Shown piece after piece: positions 8,215-26,610 of a stretch of 64,000 bases of DNA (its first letter is position 1; each line of letters opens with the position of its first letter). The stretch comes from Savitreella phatthalungensis. Its lineage: Eukaryota. Both the position numbers and the translations under genes were made by a program. The DNA lies in contig AP039689.1 in the NCBI GenBank assembly GCA_051599415.1, positions 372,001-436,000 on the forward strand, written 5' to 3'. The notes under the pieces were generated by a model. It was given only the letters and a program-made list of their open reading frames with translations, was not told the origin of the DNA and made no database searches.

Positions 8215-8817
8215 GATTGCTATTTCTCTCCCGAGGATCCGGTCTGCCAGATGAGATGAGGAATGTGTAGTATAAGTGCGTGGATGTAAGTGGTTGTATT
8301 GACCCTTCGAGGAGAGTGGCAAATGAAGGTGGGTGAATGTTTAGACGCGTCTCTTTTGCAATAATTGCTGCTTTGACGTCATGGAAGTCAATATTGACAT
8401 TTTGCTCGAGATTGTGCTATCGTATGCAGATTTATGTGTTTTAACATAGGCATATAAACTGTACACACGTAAGGGCTATATATGGCATTACTGATTTCAT
8501 TCGAAAAAGACGTGGAACTTTAATAAATGAGACGAAGATGGAATAAGAAATCGATCAGTATACTCACATTTGTCTGTAATATGTTCGGTTGAGCAATCGA
8601 TGATCAGGTGGAAAATCACGCACATCATATTGCTGGGCAACGATGCACGCACGTGTGATTCCATAGCCTAAGAACACAGATTACTGCAGCTGATATATAC
8701 ACGATGGTTTACACTGTACTGGCACAGCAGACTCCATTAACGTGCTCAAGGATCGTTTGAAGCTTAACATTTCGATGATGCTTTAGGTGAACTGTCTCAC
8801 GCTCTCGTCCTTGTCCA

Positions 8818-10110
8818 ATGGCGAAGCTATCGAGGGATGTCGTCGTTGTTGGCGGCGGCATTGCTGGCCTGTCCTTTGCTCAGGCAATTCTTAAAAGCCC
8901 CGTGAGTCGGCATCTCAGAGTCTCCGTTATCGAGGCCTATCCGCCAAAGCTGTTCAGCTCGAGTAGTCCTGTCAGCAATCGTACGGTCAGTCTGACGCCG
9001 TCGTCCTATGCCTTTCTGCAACGCATTGATGGCTTGAGTATGGCGTCCACGCAACGTCTGCAGACTTACACAGACATGCATGTCTACGACGGAGTCTCTG
9101 ATAAGGAGATCCAGTTCGACAGCGGTAGCGGCATTGCTACAATGGCGGAGAACAACAATGTACAATCCGCCCTCTGGGAAAGTCTCAGAGAGAAAACTAC
9201 AGCAGACATTCATACTGCGAAAGTGGCTACGATCGAGCGCACGGGTGACGTCGAGGCTGGTACAGCTCGACCGAAAATCACGCTCGATAATGGCAGTGTG
9301 CTCGAAACTGCTCTGCTTGTTGGCGCAGATGGCATCAACAGCCCTGTGAGGACATTCGCTGGCATCGACTCCCGCGGCTGGGACTATCCACACCACGGCG
9401 TGGTTGGTACCCTAACACATGCCGGTGATGTCGACTATCGGACTGCACATCAGCGCATGCTCCCGTCTGGACCGATTGCTTTCCTACCCTTGCCACAGGA
9501 ATACGCCAGCCTGGTCTGGTCTATTTCGCCCATCAAAGCAGCAAAGATCAAGTCGCTTTCGCTAGAGACGGTTACGAAGCTTGTGAACGCCGCGTTCAGA
9601 CTGAATCACGTTGATCTTGACTATGTCCTCTCGCTAGAGGGTGACGCCGTAATTGCAGACGAGCTAGCCTGGCGCCTTGCCCAACCATCTTATTCGTCGC
9701 ACGCACCGCCTCTCGTGACGAGCGTTACGGGTGTAGCGTCATTCCCACTGCGCTTTAGACACGCAAATACGTATCATTCGCTCGAGCACAGATGCTGCCT
9801 GATTGGCGACGCCGCGCACACCATCCATCCAATGGCTGGCCAAGGTTTGAATTGCGGTCTCGGTGACGCCGAGACACTTGCAACGCTGATCGAGGAGGCC
9901 TGCGTGCTGGGAAGTGATCTGGCCTCTGTCGGCCCACACCTGACGCGTGATCGATACTGGGCAAACGCTCGCGTCCATGGCGTCGTAGACAAGCTCCACA
10001 AGCTTTACGCGGTCGAGAGTGGCCCGCTTGTCGCCGCTCGATCCATCGGTACAGGTCTCTTGGACTCCTTGGGATTTGTGAAGCGCACGATGATGAATGC
10101 TGCTGGCTGA
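8818..10110 (+). CDS. COQ6: Ubiquinone biosynthesis FAD monooxygenase Coq6 (UbiH/COQ6 family)
   Basis: VVGGGIAG FAD motif, SNRTVSLTP, LLVGADGINSPVR, QRMLPSGPIAFLPL, LIGDAAHTIHPMAGQGLNCG, VDKLHKLY. Confidence 0.9.
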   Translation: MAKLSRDVVVVGGGIAGLSFAQAILKSPVSRHLRVSVIEAYPPKLFSSSSPVSNRTVSLTPSSYAFLQRIDGLSMASTQRLQTYTDMHVYDGVSDKEIQFDSGSGIATMAENNNVQSALWESLREKTTADIHTAKVATIERTGDVEAGTARPKITLDNGSVLETALLVGADGINSPVRTFAGIDSRGWDYPHHGVVGTLTHAGDVDYRTAHQRMLPSGPIAFLPLPQEYASLVWSISPIKAAKIKSLSLETVTKLVNAAFRLNHVDLDYVLSLEGDAVIADELAWRLAQPSYSSHAPPLVTSVTGVASFPLRFRHANTYHSLEHRCCLIGDAAHTIHPMAGQGLNCGLGDAETLATLIEEACVLGSDLASVGPHLTRDRYWANARVHGVVDKLHKLYAVESGPLVAARSIGTGLLDSLGFVKRTMMNAAG

Positions 10111-10199: not shown

Positions 10200-13100
10200 T
10201 CACACGTCGTCGAGGACTTGTGCGAGGATGAAGACATTGGCCGCGAAGAAGCAAATAGTGGCGATCCACATTTGCTGGAAGACTTGCTGACCTAGCATTT
10301 CAAACTTGTACGCGTAGCTGAGCCACAATCCTTGACCACCGACCCAAAGCGCAAGGCACATCAGCGGCCGCCAGTACCAAAGCCCTCGTGACTTAAGCCC
10401 AAGCAGCTGAGATCCCGGTAGCCAGAGAGGGATGAAAACCAGGTACCAGAGGAAGTACTGCGACGTGACAACTTTGTTGAAAGTCACAAAAGCGAATGTC
10501 TGAGCGAAAAAGCAGGTCGTCGTGGCGTGCCGGGCGTCCGACTGCGGATTGTTCCACAAGAATGTGAGCGGGATGATCACCAGTGTCAGCAGGAGTTGCG
10601 GTACGAAGGCGACGAGTGAAAGAAAGGAAGAGCCAGTGACAGCGGTGCCTGTGGCAGCTGCTGCGGACGACATGTAGAGCGCGAGATGGTATGGTGAGAA
10701 ATTGTGCCGATGGTCCGTTCGAGAGATGTGGTAGAGGAACGTGTGGCGGATGAAATCGGCACCATACACAGCGTACATGATCAGGGAAAGCACGCCGAAT
10801 GTTCCAGCGCTGACCAGCGCAAACATGATGGATGTGCTCGACACGATCGAGCGCAGTCTACCGCGAGCAAGCGCCAGCAAGATGCTCGGCACGTAGATAA
10901 TTGGGTACACCTTGAAGTGAACTGCCAAACCTGTCCAAAGACCGAGCCAAAAGACTGAAGACTTGGAAGAGAGATTGGCAACCTGATGGACATGTACCTC
11001 GTCGATGTAGTAAAGCATCGCAATTGCCAGAGCTCCCAGGAGACCTTCACAATTGCCGCGAGTAGAAATCACGGCCACCATGGGATTGAGTAACCATGCA
11101 GCAGCCCATTCGATTGGCAGATTGCGACGACGGAGCAGCTTGATCATCAGCCATCCTGCAACTACATCACCGAGGGAGAATACGACCTTACCCCAGTTGG
11201 CATAGAAGCCCGTGGGGATGAGCAGCCAAGCGAGAAGCGGGGTATAGCGATAGGTAGCTCGTTCATAGGGACTGCCGCCGGCTTGAACAAATCTGGCCGC
11301 GTCGCAGAAGACGTCGTAGTCGACATCAGTGAAGCGGACGGCATGGCCCCAGCTATCTTGCCAGTTGCCATAAAGCATAAGCACGAGACGCAGGACGAGG
11401 CCGCCGGCAAGCAGCATGTCGGTCTTGCTCGGAGCATACACGTGCTTGATGACGAGTGACAAACGCTCTGACATGGGAAGCTTGGCGCGCATTGGATAGG
11501 TGCCAGTCTGGCAGAGATGCTTGAGTCGTTGTCCGATGGCAAAGTAGCCGTCTGTCGCGATCTTGATGCCGATCTGAGCCTCGGACGGCAGATCAGCGAT
11601 CGCGCCAGTGCTATGAGCGTGTCTGTCCTTGGCCATTTCAAGCAGATGCAACGCATGCTGGCATAAATTTGTGTCTGTCGTGTCGATGCCTTTCGGATCC
11701 TGCCCGTGCATTGCTCCGAGATCATCGAGATCGCCCGCATTGAGCCATGTTCGTGGCAGATAGATGCGCCCGTTACAGGCATCCGTGACGATATCGCGCG
11801 CAATATTTGTCAGCTGGAGGACAACACCCATTTCTCTAGCAGCCGCGAACGTCTGTTGACTCTGTTGGCCGGGCAGGACGGCAAGACACATCTCTGCAAC
11901 ACTGCTTGCCACATGCTCACAATACTTGAGCAGGTCTTGTTCTGTCTCGATGCGGGACTTTGCCTCATCGATGCGTATATCCCAATCATAGCCGTCCAAG
12001 AGCTCAAGCATGGCTGAACGAGGTACCTTTGGCACGATATAGCGCATGACACTGCGTCTGATTGCGTCATCATCCGCGTGAGCGGCAGACAGTGCTGGTG
12101 TCTTGCCTGATGGTGTATCAGAGAAGCGCTGCTGAACAAATTTCCTGAGCTGCTGCAATCTGGCTCTTCTTACTGTCGACCTGACTTCTGTGCTGTCAGC
12201 GATGTCGTCACTAGCACGGCAGAAAGCATATAGCACAATGAGATCGCGTCGAATACCCTCGTTGAAGAAGAAGGAAGAGCTGTAGAAGCTGGAGGAGCTG
12301 CTCTGGAGCAGTTCGACACATTCGGACAAATCCTCGACGACCGAATCGTCCCGCTTGAGCAGCAGCGCTCTGCAAAGTGAGGCGAATGAGAACCCGACGC
12401 TCTCATCGTATGTGTAGACGATAGATGCTGCAAGATCGTAGCCTGAGCAACCGAGGACGACCATGATATTGGTAACGAGGAAGAATACAGCTTCCTCGAG
12501 CGGAAGACCGCGCGTGAGGAAGATTTCCAGTGAAGTGGCTTCAGTGATATGCCAAGTCCCGGCGACGATGGCGATCGAGTCGACCCAGCAGAGATATAGC
12601 GTGGGGACAACGATGGAAACGACGACTGTGGGCATTCTGCCAGAAAGGAATGCCGTCTGGATGGCAGAGATGAAGAAGAGGAAGAACATGACGGGACTAA
12701 CCCAAGAGATAATCGCCCCGAGATAGAATGTCTTTTCATTCGGAATGACTCGTGTGAATGCGAATGCCCCGAGCGCTGGCATGGTCAACCAGATAGCGCC
12801 TAGAAGCCATGGTACACCTGTATGCCGTCGCAGACTGAGGATTGGCAGCTCGGCGAAGCAGCGAGTAGTCAGAGAATAGAACAGACATGCGGTCAAAGTC
12901 TGCGTTACGAAGAAGACGTATTCCTCCACGGGAACGTAGCCGATCACACCCATGACACAGGTGGGACAATACGTCCATGCTTTGTGAAAGATGATGTAGT
13001 TGTCCCATGGAGTGGTGTACAGCACGGCGATCGTACATAGGAACAGATATTTCCGAAGATCGTCCCGAGTGAAAAATGGTCTGTAGAGCAGGCCCAGGAG

Positions 13101-13206
13101 TATTAGCGGCGGCAAATTGTAGAAGATATGTCTTTTGAGGAGGACGTCAGCGCTGCCTCTCGGAGGCTAAAAAGGGCTCTGCTTACACTTGGAGATACGT
13201 CAGCAT
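10200..13206 (-). CDS. Fusion: bifunctional lycopene cyclase/phytoene synthase (CrtYB/CarRA/Al-2) + GPI mannosyltransferase I (Gpi14/PIG-M); exons 13206-13187 and 13131-10200
   Basis: Exon 1 MLTYLQV, intron 13132-13186 (GTAAGC..CTGAC..AAG), then HIFYNLPP. Cyclase motifs YTTPWDNYII, VPVEEYVFF, PTLYLCWVD, LPLEEAVFF. Phytoene synthase motifs LYAFCRASDDIAD, LQLTNIARDIVTD..GRIYLP. PIG-M motifs FTDVDYDVF, SPYERATYRYTPLL, NPMVAVISTRGN, HFKVYPIIY, RTDHRHNFSPY, FVTFNKVVTSQYFLWY. No stop between the domains. Confidence 0.92.
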
Positions 13207-25651: not shown

Positions 25652-26308
25652 TCAGTGCGTCTTGATTCGTACAATCTTTTGCCTGCGTCCGTAGATGGTG
25701 CGGTGAATGATGGTGATGAGGATTGGCTGAACGACCCTGAGCGCAAACGCCGCCGACACCACCACTAGCAGCACCGTCCACACAATTGACCTCGGCAACC
25801 CACCAAATAGCAACGGATCCAAGACCAATTCGAAATCGACGCGAACATCCTCCACCAGATCCTTGCACGGTACGAGTTCCGGAAACGCGTCTAGTCGCAG
25901 TATTACTCGACTGGTTGGATGATCCACTTTGTATTCCTTGACAGGCGCCGTGACAGTCGTCAGGGTAAATATCGTCGGCATACTGGCTGGCCAACATACT
26001 CTGACTTCGTACTTCCGTCCACTTGACAACTCATCCAAGAGATACCAGCGCGTATGCGACGCCCCATCGATTGGCAGCGGAAACACAATCGCGTCACGGA
26101 ATGTAGCGAACCCTGATCCGTGTGAAGCGCCAGATATCCGGGTCAGATTGGAGATATTGTATCCGTTGCGGCCCTTGTGATTGTCCTCGCCTGCGGCTGT
26201 GAATGAGGCGGGAGGTGCTGTAAAGATAGTCTTCTCGGTGTTAGCGCTACAGATCCCGAAGAGCCAAGTGACTGCCAGCCAGCAGAAGCTGAGGAAAATA
26301 TGCTTCAT
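25652..26308 (-). CDS. PGA1: Pga1-like GPI mannosyltransferase II co-activator (signal peptide + C-terminal TM)
   Basis: Signal peptide ending ..SANTEKTIF, YEVRVCWPASMPT, VLDPLLFGGLPRS followed by a TM helix; resembles the fungal Pga1 family from recall. Confidence 0.6.
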   Translation of the reverse strand: MKHIFLSFCWLAVTWLFGICSANTEKTIFTAPPASFTAAGEDNHKGRNGYNISNLTRISGASHGSGFATFRDAIVFPLPIDGASHTRWYLLDELSSGRKYEVRVCWPASMPTIFTLTTVTAPVKEYKVDHPTSRVILRLDAFPELVPCKDLVEDVRVDFELVLDPLLFGGLPRSIVWTVLLVVVSAAFALRVVQPILITIIHRTIYGRRQKIVRIKTH

Positions 26309-26610
26309 GCTCGAACCGTCATTCTTCCATAGCAGTCAGCGAGAGCTCTCTGACAGCAATGTAAGTTGTCAAGCTCGGCGTCCGTGCCATTTTACACGTT
26401 CCAACCTCAGCTCACATGATGTCAAACTCAGAGACAAGATGTTCAGCCAAGCCAACCATGCATCTAAAAGCATGAACATTTTACTGAGGAATCCAATGCA
26501 CAATAAAGTGACTCTAGATAAAAGGAAAAAACACTACAGCAGACGCGTTCCAAGTGAAGTGACGTGAAAAAACAGCGGCAGAAGGGAAGCAGTCGCGGAG
26601 ACTGAGATGC

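Follow-up and report, generated by a model that had tools for sequence, protein, structure and literature searches.

Can an essential glycosyltransferase of the endoplasmic reticulum (ER) share one encoded chain with a pigment enzyme that is dispensable, and can such a chain be kept in lineages as far apart as Neolecta and Taphrina? The question is raised by a gene on the minus strand of the window, by which we mean the whole 64,000-nucleotide stretch of Savitreella phatthalungensis DNA analyzed here. Gpi14, the catalytic subunit of GPI mannosyltransferase I, starts the addition of mannose to GPI anchors; it is essential and is normally a separate enzyme. A first-pass annotation had read the locus as a CrtYB-type protein joined to a full Gpi14 in a three-module fusion, a reading that is borne out by the frame, by the domains and by 13 other fused proteins. 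The explanation we consider likely is that the gene stems from an ancient end-to-end fusion of crtYB and GPI14 and that its product is one ER-membrane chain in which three activities are retained.

The Gene and Its Reading Frame

The minus-strand frame 10200..13166 of the window DNA is open over 988 codons, stop to stop. Read as a gene, positions 10200-13206 (minus strand) hold an ATG, a 55-nt intron and then an uninterrupted frame, with a predicted product of 983 aa; the earlier claim of a single frame of about 983 aa once a 55-nt 5' intron is removed is thus upheld by the window sequence. Exon 1 (13187..13206, minus strand) is 20 nt long, starts with the ATG at 13206-13204 and codes for MLTYLQ, followed by two bases that open a Val codon. 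The predicted intron (13132..13186, minus strand), which reads GTAAGC ... CTGAC ... AAAAG, is followed by exon 2 from 13131 on the same strand. Taking out this predicted intron affords an N-terminus that is conserved among relatives: the predicted product begins MLTYLQV|HIFYN..., as in Protomyces P0013, and MLTYLQVH is also found in the fused proteins P0005, P0006, P0008, P0009 and P0012. The stop codon at 10200-10202 (minus strand) ends the Gpi14 module.

One in-frame stretch of 36 nt, VHVHQVANLSSK (10962..10997, minus strand; residues 724-735), is private to the window and adds 12 residues that none of the 13 other fused proteins has at this place in the alignment. Because its DNA (GTACAT...CCAAG) is bounded by GT...AG, the stretch may be a very short intron; if not, it is a loop insertion private to the window. 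With the stretch spliced out, the protein would have 971 aa. Two other window-private insertions in the Gpi14 module, residues 871-880 and 928-934, were also considered as introns and were ruled out, as they have no GT...AG bounds.

The CrtYB Part

Judged by its sequence, the N-terminal part would belong to the CrtYB/CarRA/AL-2 proteins, with the cyclase repeats and the C-terminal synthase present and the modules in the right order. The lycopene cyclase module (12402..13130, minus strand; residues 13-255 of the window protein, P0001) contains two CarR repeats and is matched in two stretches by the lycopene-cyclase domain TIGR03462, with an E-value of 8.5e-29, a match above the TIGR03462 cut-off; the Pfam cyclase model PF18916 gave no match in the window protein at E<=0.01. 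The N-terminal PxEE motifs of the cyclase, one per CarR repeat, read VPVEEYVFF and LPLEEAVFF, and the second of them (LPLEEA; P222, E224 and E225) is invariant in 14 of 14 fused sequences. In the AF2 model the module folds into seven long helices (8-31, 34-60, 80-104, 120-138, 147-170, 174-201 and 223-253).

The phytoene synthase module (11478..12305, minus strand) is defined by the PF00494 SQS_PSY span, residues 288-563, with an E-value of 8.8e-50. It carries both Asp-rich motifs, DDIAD at 12209-12195 and NIARDIVTD at 11807-11781 (both minus strand), whose residues D320, D321, D324, D458 and D462 do not vary in any of the 14 fused sequences. In a Foldseek comparison the module resembled CrtM-type synthases (target TM-score about 0.82). 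A CrtYB-type protein ends soon after the synthase, at about 590-720 aa; here 404 more residues follow.

The Gpi14 Part

These additional residues make up a complete Gpi14/PIG-M (GT50) module (10203..11414, minus strand; residues 585-988), in which the PIG-M domain PF05007 matches residues 700-985 with an E-value of 5.3e-71. Solved GPI mannosyltransferase I chains align over residues 590-988, among them PDB 23gx_B (E 1.2e-77), and the alignment spans residues 12-388 of a chain of 390. Foldseek placed the module on 9wno_A with a target TM-score of 0.83 and 39% identity. The catalytic DxD lies in the first lumenal loop as TDVDY (11330-11316, minus strand; residues 613-617), and its D614 and D616 are invariant in 14/14 fused proteins; the catalytic role of the Gpi14 DxD is treated in a section of PMC12653191.

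Further along the minus strand are the motifs YRYTPLL (11252-11232), STRGN (11066-11052), DHRHNFS (10715-10695) and NKVVTSQYFLWY (10478-10443), so that all of the motifs named by the first-pass annotation were found where it had placed them. The Gpi14 hallmarks DxD, YRYTPLLAW, NPMVAVISTRGN, DHRHNFS and NKVVTSQYF are all kept. The module is 41-48% identical to the stand-alone fungal GPI14 proteins listed, many of which are annotated as GPI mannosyltransferase 1. With a PIG-M domain of whole-enzyme extent, a 12-helix GT-C fold and the DxD, it would qualify as a genuine Gpi14/PIG-M. The one departure is at its start, where 580 CrtYB residues precede the first transmembrane helix (TM1) in place of the free N-terminus, a few residues long, of a typical Gpi14.

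The Junction

The fusion junction (11355..11498, minus strand; residues 557-604, YPMR...WQD) comprises the C-terminal tail of CrtYB, a 3-residue turn and TM1 of Gpi14. The natural C-terminus of CrtYB is joined end to end to the natural N-terminus of Gpi14 with no stop, spacer or linker between them. The spacing from YPxR to WQD is exactly 48 residues in 13 of the 14 fused proteins (62 in Saitoella), and the junction aligns without gaps among fused proteins whose sequences are only about 41-66% identical. In stand-alone proteins, in contrast to this fixed length, the same termini vary by 20-40 residues: CrtYB tails extend 23-66 aa past YPxR, and 24-44 residues stand ahead of xQD in 14 of the 16 stand-alone Gpi14 proteins examined, the other two (S. 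pombe and Pneumocystis) reading WHD and being missed by the search pattern.

The full-length AF2 model has a mean pLDDT of 91.1 and a pTM of 0.85, and its junction is confident: a helix at 565-577, the 3-residue turn and a helix at 581-604 (TM1 of Gpi14), with pLDDT 93-95. The membrane helices were taken from this model, since a simple hydropathy scan left them unresolved. According to the part of PMC12653191 that deals with the solved C. glabrata complex, the N-terminus of Gpi14 is cytoplasmic, and its attachment to a cytosolic domain is therefore possible. Together with the confident junction, this placement agrees with the compatible topology that had been claimed earlier, to the extent that this part of the paper describes it.

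Distribution and Origin of the Fusion

Fourteen of the 45 proteins that match the junction region carry both PF00494 and PF05007, namely the window's own model and 13 others. They include proteins of T. deformans, P. lactucae-debilis, N. irregularis and S. complicata, as well as nine further database sequences, under the labels ‘lycopene cyclase/phytoene synthase’, ‘PIG-M-domain-containing protein’, ‘GPI mannosyltransferase 1’ or ‘hypothetical’. Across the fourteen, no variation is seen in the catalytic Asp residues of the synthase and of Gpi14 or in the PxEE of the cyclase. Exhaustive searching with the CrtYB half gave fused forms as 3 of the 150 representatives listed, and PIG-M was absent from the 11 other long or odd representatives tested. 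The domain-architecture check proposed in the first-pass annotation went against the notion of a fusion peculiar to the window genome, since 13 other database proteins have the same architecture. Taphrina, Protomyces, Saitoella and Neolecta all retain this join, which is therefore an old and real fusion and not an error; at the level of sequence, the gene is confirmed as a conserved, genuine three-module variant of CrtYB.

In the CrtYB tree the 14 fused sequences fall on one side of a branch with an SH-aLRT of 99, apart from 30 stand-alone representatives, in a tree built by the ‘quick’ method and with a single group also expected from species relatedness alone. The grouping of the 14 CrtYB halves thus fits a single old origin. 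In the Gpi14 tree, whose deep branches are weak and in which the S. pombe branch is long and of odd composition, the fused sequences do not form one group; three changes are needed, and a tree constrained to hold the 14 in one group is disfavoured by a narrow margin (p-AU 0.035). The fused PIG-M module branches with other ascomycete Gpi14 proteins, where orthologues are expected. This tree appears compatible with a later loss of the CrtYB part in fission yeast and Pneumocystis. A single origin in an early member of the Taphrinomycotina, followed by such losses, is the probable history that we infer.

The proposed course of events is a simple one. Two once-separate genes, crtYB and then GPI14, would have been joined end to end with loss of the stop codon, the intergenic spacer and the start codon, and it is because of this loss that the last synthase helix would enter TM1 of Gpi14 through a 3-residue turn. 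The gene most likely gives rise to one protein of the ER membrane, about 983 aa long and predicted to consist of about 7 cyclase helices, a cytosolic synthase and a 12-helix Gpi14 whose DxD faces the lumen; each of the three activities would be retained in it. The fusion would have been kept by the carotenoid-producing lines (Taphrina/Protomyces-like fungi, Saitoella and Neolecta), and the unpigmented lines (fission yeasts and Pneumocystis) now have Gpi14 alone. A passage of PMC7912804 reports carotenoid pigments from Taphrina, Protomyces and Saitoella.

One Protein or Two

Translation as one chain and the retention of every activity are what we infer for the fused gene. We consider it unlikely, but worth weighing, that the DNA frame is fused and two proteins are nevertheless made from it, either by an internal start of transcription or translation or by a cut at the junction after membrane insertion. 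Met 584 of the window protein stands exactly at the junction, just before TM1 of Gpi14, where it could start a separate enzyme; an inter-domain cleavage of CarRA-type proteins has been proposed in Mucorales; and it would seem awkward for an essential enzyme to be placed under the promoter of a pigment gene. The Met is not conserved, however: one is comparably placed, 16-28 residues ahead of the W of WQD, in only 6 of the 14 fused proteins, and in four of the 14, Protomyces included, the 48-aa junction lacks Met altogether. A junction of fixed length in 13 of 14 proteins at such modest identity is also at odds with free termini, which vary widely, and the tight helix-turn-helix of the model is not a flexible linker.

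Quite improbable, in our view, is a PIG-M module that was an extra copy repurposed as a glycosyltransferase for another substrate, such as a carotenoid or another lipid, with the real Gpi14 encoded elsewhere. Against it stand the full set of hallmark motifs, the identity to stand-alone fungal GPI14, the end-to-end match to the solved enzyme and the orthologous position in the tree. In addition, none of the best 120 of 3179 matches that bear a name is a stand-alone Gpi14 of a genus with the fusion, and the same holds for the best 120 of 3550 when the T. deformans Gpi14 module was the query. The absence of a stand-alone copy rests on these best matches, and a divergent copy could exist in the fusion-bearing genomes; the fused copy would otherwise be the organism's only Gpi14. 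Least probable is an artefact of assembly or gene modelling that falsely joined two adjacent genes: chimeric gene models are frequent in compact fungal genomes, and other long PIG-M proteins (e.g., Pneumocystis P0029 and nematode entries) do resemble merged models, but the window DNA itself contains no stop or spacer, the gap-free junction is common to 13 independent sequences drawn from NCBI genomes, ENA and Logan assemblies, and GC3 is even over the three modules (0.63/0.60/0.65).

The surroundings of the gene were also considered. A carotenoid or GPI gene cluster was ruled out by a scan of 29 window ORFs, in which no carotenoid-pathway domain (CrtI-type oxidase, polyprenyl (GGPP) synthase, opsin or carotenoid oxygenase) was found; the flanking genes encode an FAD-binding monooxygenase and a mitochondrial-type L28. 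A metagenome scan with the fused alignment matched 592 stretches, 438 of them confirmed. None of the 80 metagenomic loci kept was fused, all being of the stand-alone GPI14 type (query residues from 502 onwards, identity <=50%), and tblastn of the CrtYB half over these loci (439,631 bases, E<=1e-3) revealed no unfused crtYB-GPI14 tandem of the kind supposed to be the precursor.

Returning to the single fused chain, the simplest view of its linkage is that of an accident frozen in a compact genome. The fusion would be hard to undo because Gpi14 now relies on the crtYB promoter, which would need to be expressed constitutively. A functional benefit of the linkage is possible; that carotenogenesis is anchored at GPI-assembly sites, that two isoprenoid pathways are linked or that a pigment gene is tied to an essential one is speculation. 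A broader reading can be put forward only tentatively: all carotenoid-producing Taphrinomycotina may have Gpi14 only as the C-terminal module of a carotenoid synthase, the fusion going back to the base of the subphylum, gpi14 of fission yeasts and of Pneumocystis being a fission product that dropped the CrtYB part along with the pigment, and the rigid junction of fixed length being kept for side-by-side work in the ER, where the membrane modules might, for example, share an isoprenoid-lipid environment (GGPP, dolichol-phosphate-mannose). If it is true, the join can serve as a rare genomic marker where the deep branching of the Taphrinomycotina is disputed, and it is an example from nature of a dispensable pathway that is locked in place by an essential gene.

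Comparison with Known Systems

Full-text literature searching found no published description of a CrtYB-Gpi14 fusion, which is apparently described here for the first time. The first-pass annotation knew of no described fusion, and this holds for the literature searched; it does not hold for the public protein databases, where the architecture is already present in at least four species of Taphrinomycotina. In the paper on the T. deformans genome, TAPDE_005571 is given the name lycopene cyclase/phytoene synthase and no other, and papers that list such carotenoid genes leave the fusion unmentioned. There is a warning for annotation here, as the fused proteins are at present named for one half or the other. 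As a rare genomic change, the fusion is informative on the relationships of the Taphrinomycotina and on how fused genes separate again, and, if one polypeptide is made, it would place fungal carotenoid synthesis physically in the ER beside GPI assembly.

In a passage of a review (PMC8879039), crtYB is given as the typical fungal fusion gene. CrtYB of Xanthophyllomyces, CarRA/CarRP of Mucorales and AL-2 of Neurospora have the same module order as the N-terminal 580 residues here, and stand-alone CrtYB-type proteins of 586-613 aa, such as Cokeromyces P0166 and Paraphysoderma P0167, can be aligned with these residues from end to end at 33-38% identity. These known proteins end 3-25 residues past the point that aligns with residue about 577-581, whereas here a Gpi14 of about 400 aa continues. 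Residues 585-988 match the whole enzyme and the lumenal DxD of the Candida glabrata Gpi14-Pbn1 complex (9wno) and of chains 23gx_B and 23gf_B; a known Gpi14, however, has a Met and 5-25 residues before TM1, where this fusion has 580 residues of CrtYB. A third module in one frame is likewise seen in P0275-like fusions, which combine an amine oxidase (CrtI-type), a phytoene synthase and a cyclase. All the enzymes joined there act in one pathway, while the module added here serves the unrelated and essential assembly of GPI anchors.

Gene Model and the Three Modules

The fusion gene (13206 to 10200, minus strand) contains an open frame of 988 codons, used here for residue numbering, which runs from 13166 to a stop codon at 10200–10202. 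Upstream of this frame, the DNA of the same strand reads as a start codon ATG at 13206–13204, a 20-nt exon 1 that starts with it, a 55-nt intron at 13186–13132 (opening with GTAAGC, closing with AAAAG, and carrying a branch-like CTGAC), and an exon 2 that starts at 13131. After splicing, the product has 983 amino acids, and its N-terminus, MLTYLQV/HIFYNLPP, is common in the alignment to the Protomyces lactucae-debilis protein P0013 and several other fused relatives; the gene model of the first-pass annotation is thus correct, and all of the motifs it had listed are where it placed them. The public model of the locus, P0002 (917 aa), begins at an internal Met (MGVIGYVPVEE...) and leaves out exon 1 and the intron; compared with the spliced 983-aa protein, it is 66 residues short at the N-terminus and lacks the first two helices of the cyclase.

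The lycopene-cyclase domain was matched twice by NCBIfam TIGR03462 (E 8.5e-29), and the cyclase model of Pfam itself gave no match on the fusion protein within E 0.01. SQS_PSY (Pfam PF00494) covers residues 288–563 (E 8.8e-50) and PIG-M (Pfam PF05007) residues 700–985 (E 5.3e-71), the latter model being without the N-terminal third of the enzyme. Among solved structures, residues 590–988 align to 12–388 of the 390-aa GPI mannosyltransferase 1 chain 23gx_B (E 1.2e-77), and the Gpi14 part is therefore complete. The full-length AF2 model, built from a 58-row alignment, has a mean pLDDT of 91.1 and a pTM of 0.85. Its Gpi14 part resembles the cryo-EM structure of C. glabrata Gpi14, 9wno_A (target TM-score 0.83, 39% identity), its synthase part resembles CrtM-type synthases (target TM-score about 0.82), and its cyclase part has seven long helices, so that the free N-terminus would lie on the lumenal side.

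None of the 13 other fused proteins contains the in-frame 36-nt stretch (VHVHQVANLSSK; 10962–10997, minus), which has GTACAT...CCAAG as its ends. It is a loop insertion private to this sequence or, alternatively, an intron of unusual brevity; the model folds it confidently in either case. Two more insertions private to the window in the Gpi14 part (10527–10556 and 10365–10385, minus; the WNNPQSDARH and GLWYWRP regions) are probably real loops, since neither has GT...AG bounds.

Conservation of the Junction

Sequence comparison shows a genuine fusion of old date that has been conserved. Residues 480–760 were searched against proteins of 543–1729 aa; both PF00494 and PF05007 are present in 14 of the 45 matches, and the other 31 lack the synthase domain. 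The 14 are P0002 and 13 others. Species names are attached to four of these 13: Taphrina deformans, Protomyces lactucae-debilis, Neolecta irregularis, and Saitoella complicata. These fused proteins sit in the databases under misleading single-function names. Identity to the window across the set is 41–66% overall, and other loops differ in length. The junction is free of gaps in 13 of the 14, in each of which YPxR and WQD lie exactly 48 residues apart; Saitoella has a 14-aa insert. All 14 keep the second PxEE motif of the cyclase and the catalytic Asp residues of the two enzymes unchanged, and GC3 is even across the three modules.

The 48 residues between YPMR of the synthase and WQD of Gpi14 in the window contain no spacer, and correspond in length to about one natural CrtYB tail followed by a natural Gpi14 N-terminus that lacks its first few residues. 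Compact stand-alone CrtYB forms have a tail of 23–28 aa; when the CrtYB half was searched exhaustively with HMMER, stand-alone proteins of 586–613 aa end 3–25 residues past the point aligned to residue about 577–581. In stand-alone Gpi14, 24–44 residues precede the xQD motif (14 of 16 sequences; those of S. pombe and Pneumocystis read WHD, unmatched by the pattern). The AF2 model places here a helix at 565–577, a 3-residue turn, and a helix at 581–604, which is TM1 of Gpi14 (pLDDT 93–95). The compatible topology claimed earlier is sound for a cytosolic synthase attached to TM1, since the solved C. glabrata complex is described with both Gpi14 termini cytoplasmic and the DxD lumenal (PMC12653191).

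An internal transcript start or a cleavage could yield a separate Gpi14 product, which we consider the less likely outcome. The window does have a junction Met (residue 584), but it is not conserved among the fused sequences: a Met 16–28 residues before the W of WQD occurs in only 6 of 14, and 4 have no junction Met. The fixed length and the confidently modeled helix-turn-helix also speak against a separate product, and suggest that a continuous chain is under structural constraint. A single tri-functional polypeptide, as sequence and model suggest, is probably what is made. An erroneous join of two genes is ruled out by the gap-free junction, the invariant motifs, and the even GC3, because such an error cannot give this pattern.

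Origin of the Fusion

In a CrtYB tree made by a quick method from the 14 fused sequences and 30 stand-alone representatives, a branch with an SH-aLRT of 99 sets all fused halves apart, and the window clusters with the fused proteins P0004 and P0011 in a group that is Taphrina/Protomyces-like. The tree of the Gpi14 part (33 rows) has a strong clade of 12 fused sequences (100/98) with the S. pombe stand-alone Gpi14 as its sister (85/83), and Neolecta, Saitoella, and Pneumocystis on weak deep branches. In AU tests, constraining the 14 fused sequences together was marginally disfavored (p-AU 0.035), and holding the Taphrinomycotina together (fused, S. pombe, and Pneumocystis) was not rejected (p-AU 0.151); the Gpi14 tree and these tests are weak evidence because the S. 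pombe branch is long and its composition odd. The identical junction of 48 residues suggests that the two genes fused once, long ago. A phylogenomic study, in the sections drawn on here, groups Saitoella with Neolecta, gives Taphrinomycetes, Pneumocystis, and Schizosaccharomyces plus Novakomyces as other, partly unresolved clades, and lists Taphrina, Protomyces, and Saitoella as having carotenoids and Novakomyces as lacking them (PMC7912804). The CrtYB part may have been lost later in unpigmented lines. The S. pombe Gpi14, P0130 (371 aa), has an annotated start, MRLVLLNYGIWHD, that aligns within TM1 of the fused forms (LRLVLMLYGNWQD), and the initial half of TM1 is therefore missing from the database protein. 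Either the start was placed wrongly, or this is a remnant of the gene's shortening.

The Gpi14 part of the window gave 3179 matches among proteins of 222–707 aa (best 120 at 41–48% identity), and that of T. deformans gave 3550 among proteins of 30–447 aa (best 120 at 49–55%). No stand-alone Gpi14 named from Taphrina, Protomyces, Saitoella, or Neolecta is among the best 120 of 3179 or the best 120 of 3550, some listed entries carrying no species name. Since no listed match is named from the fusion-bearing genera, the sequences fit, but do not prove, a fused copy that is the orthologous, sole Gpi14.

The gene's neighbors are a FAD-binding monooxygenase (FAD_binding_3; 8791–10110, plus), which looks Coq6-like, and a mitochondrial-type ribosomal L28 (13670–14239, minus). 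The genome is compact, as only about 90 bp separate the convergent stop codons of the monooxygenase and the fusion, and in such a genome tandem genes could plausibly have fused by losing a short spacer. Next to 80 metagenomic GPI14 loci, no tandem of unfused crtYB and GPI14 was seen. No carotenoid-pathway domain (for example that of a CrtI-type oxidase, polyprenyl/GGPP synthase, opsin, or carotenoid oxygenase) was found when 29 ORFs of the window were scanned. An ORF at 25655–26335 (minus), which lies about 12 kb away from the fused GPI-MT-I gene, matches Pfam's Pga1, 'GPI-Mannosyltransferase II co-activator' (E 1.8e-7); this proximity is probably a coincidence.

Relation to Known Carotenoid Enzymes

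Long relatives of the CrtYB half in the representative library (P0275, P0298, P0209, and P0242) have other partners. Some combine a CrtI-type amine oxidase with synthase and cyclase in a single protein. In two, a raffinose-synthase domain lies N-terminal to CrtYB, perhaps through merging of gene models. P0168, among the closest stand-alone relatives, is annotated from the mite Dinothrombium tinctorium; mites and aphids have acquired fungal carotenoid genes.

A full-text literature search, with subscription journals outside its scope, found no paper describing a CrtYB-Gpi14 fusion. In the text available for the T. deformans genome, TAPDE_005571 is lycopene cyclase/phytoene synthase, and the words 'Mannosyltransferase' and 'GPI' do not occur (PMC3648899); the portion of a Protomyces preprint consulted mentions only albino-2 homologues (10.1101/594028). 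The analysis neither favors nor contradicts the functional roles suggested in the first-pass annotation. The simplest reading of the linkage is a frozen accident that locked a pigment gene to an essential one, and the fusion bears on both fungal evolution and carotenoid biology. The pertinent part of a review of fungal carotenoids presents crtYB as the typical two-part fusion (PMC8879039); the protein described here is most fittingly classed as a three-module variant, new to the CrtYB family, whose third module is probably the organism's Gpi14.
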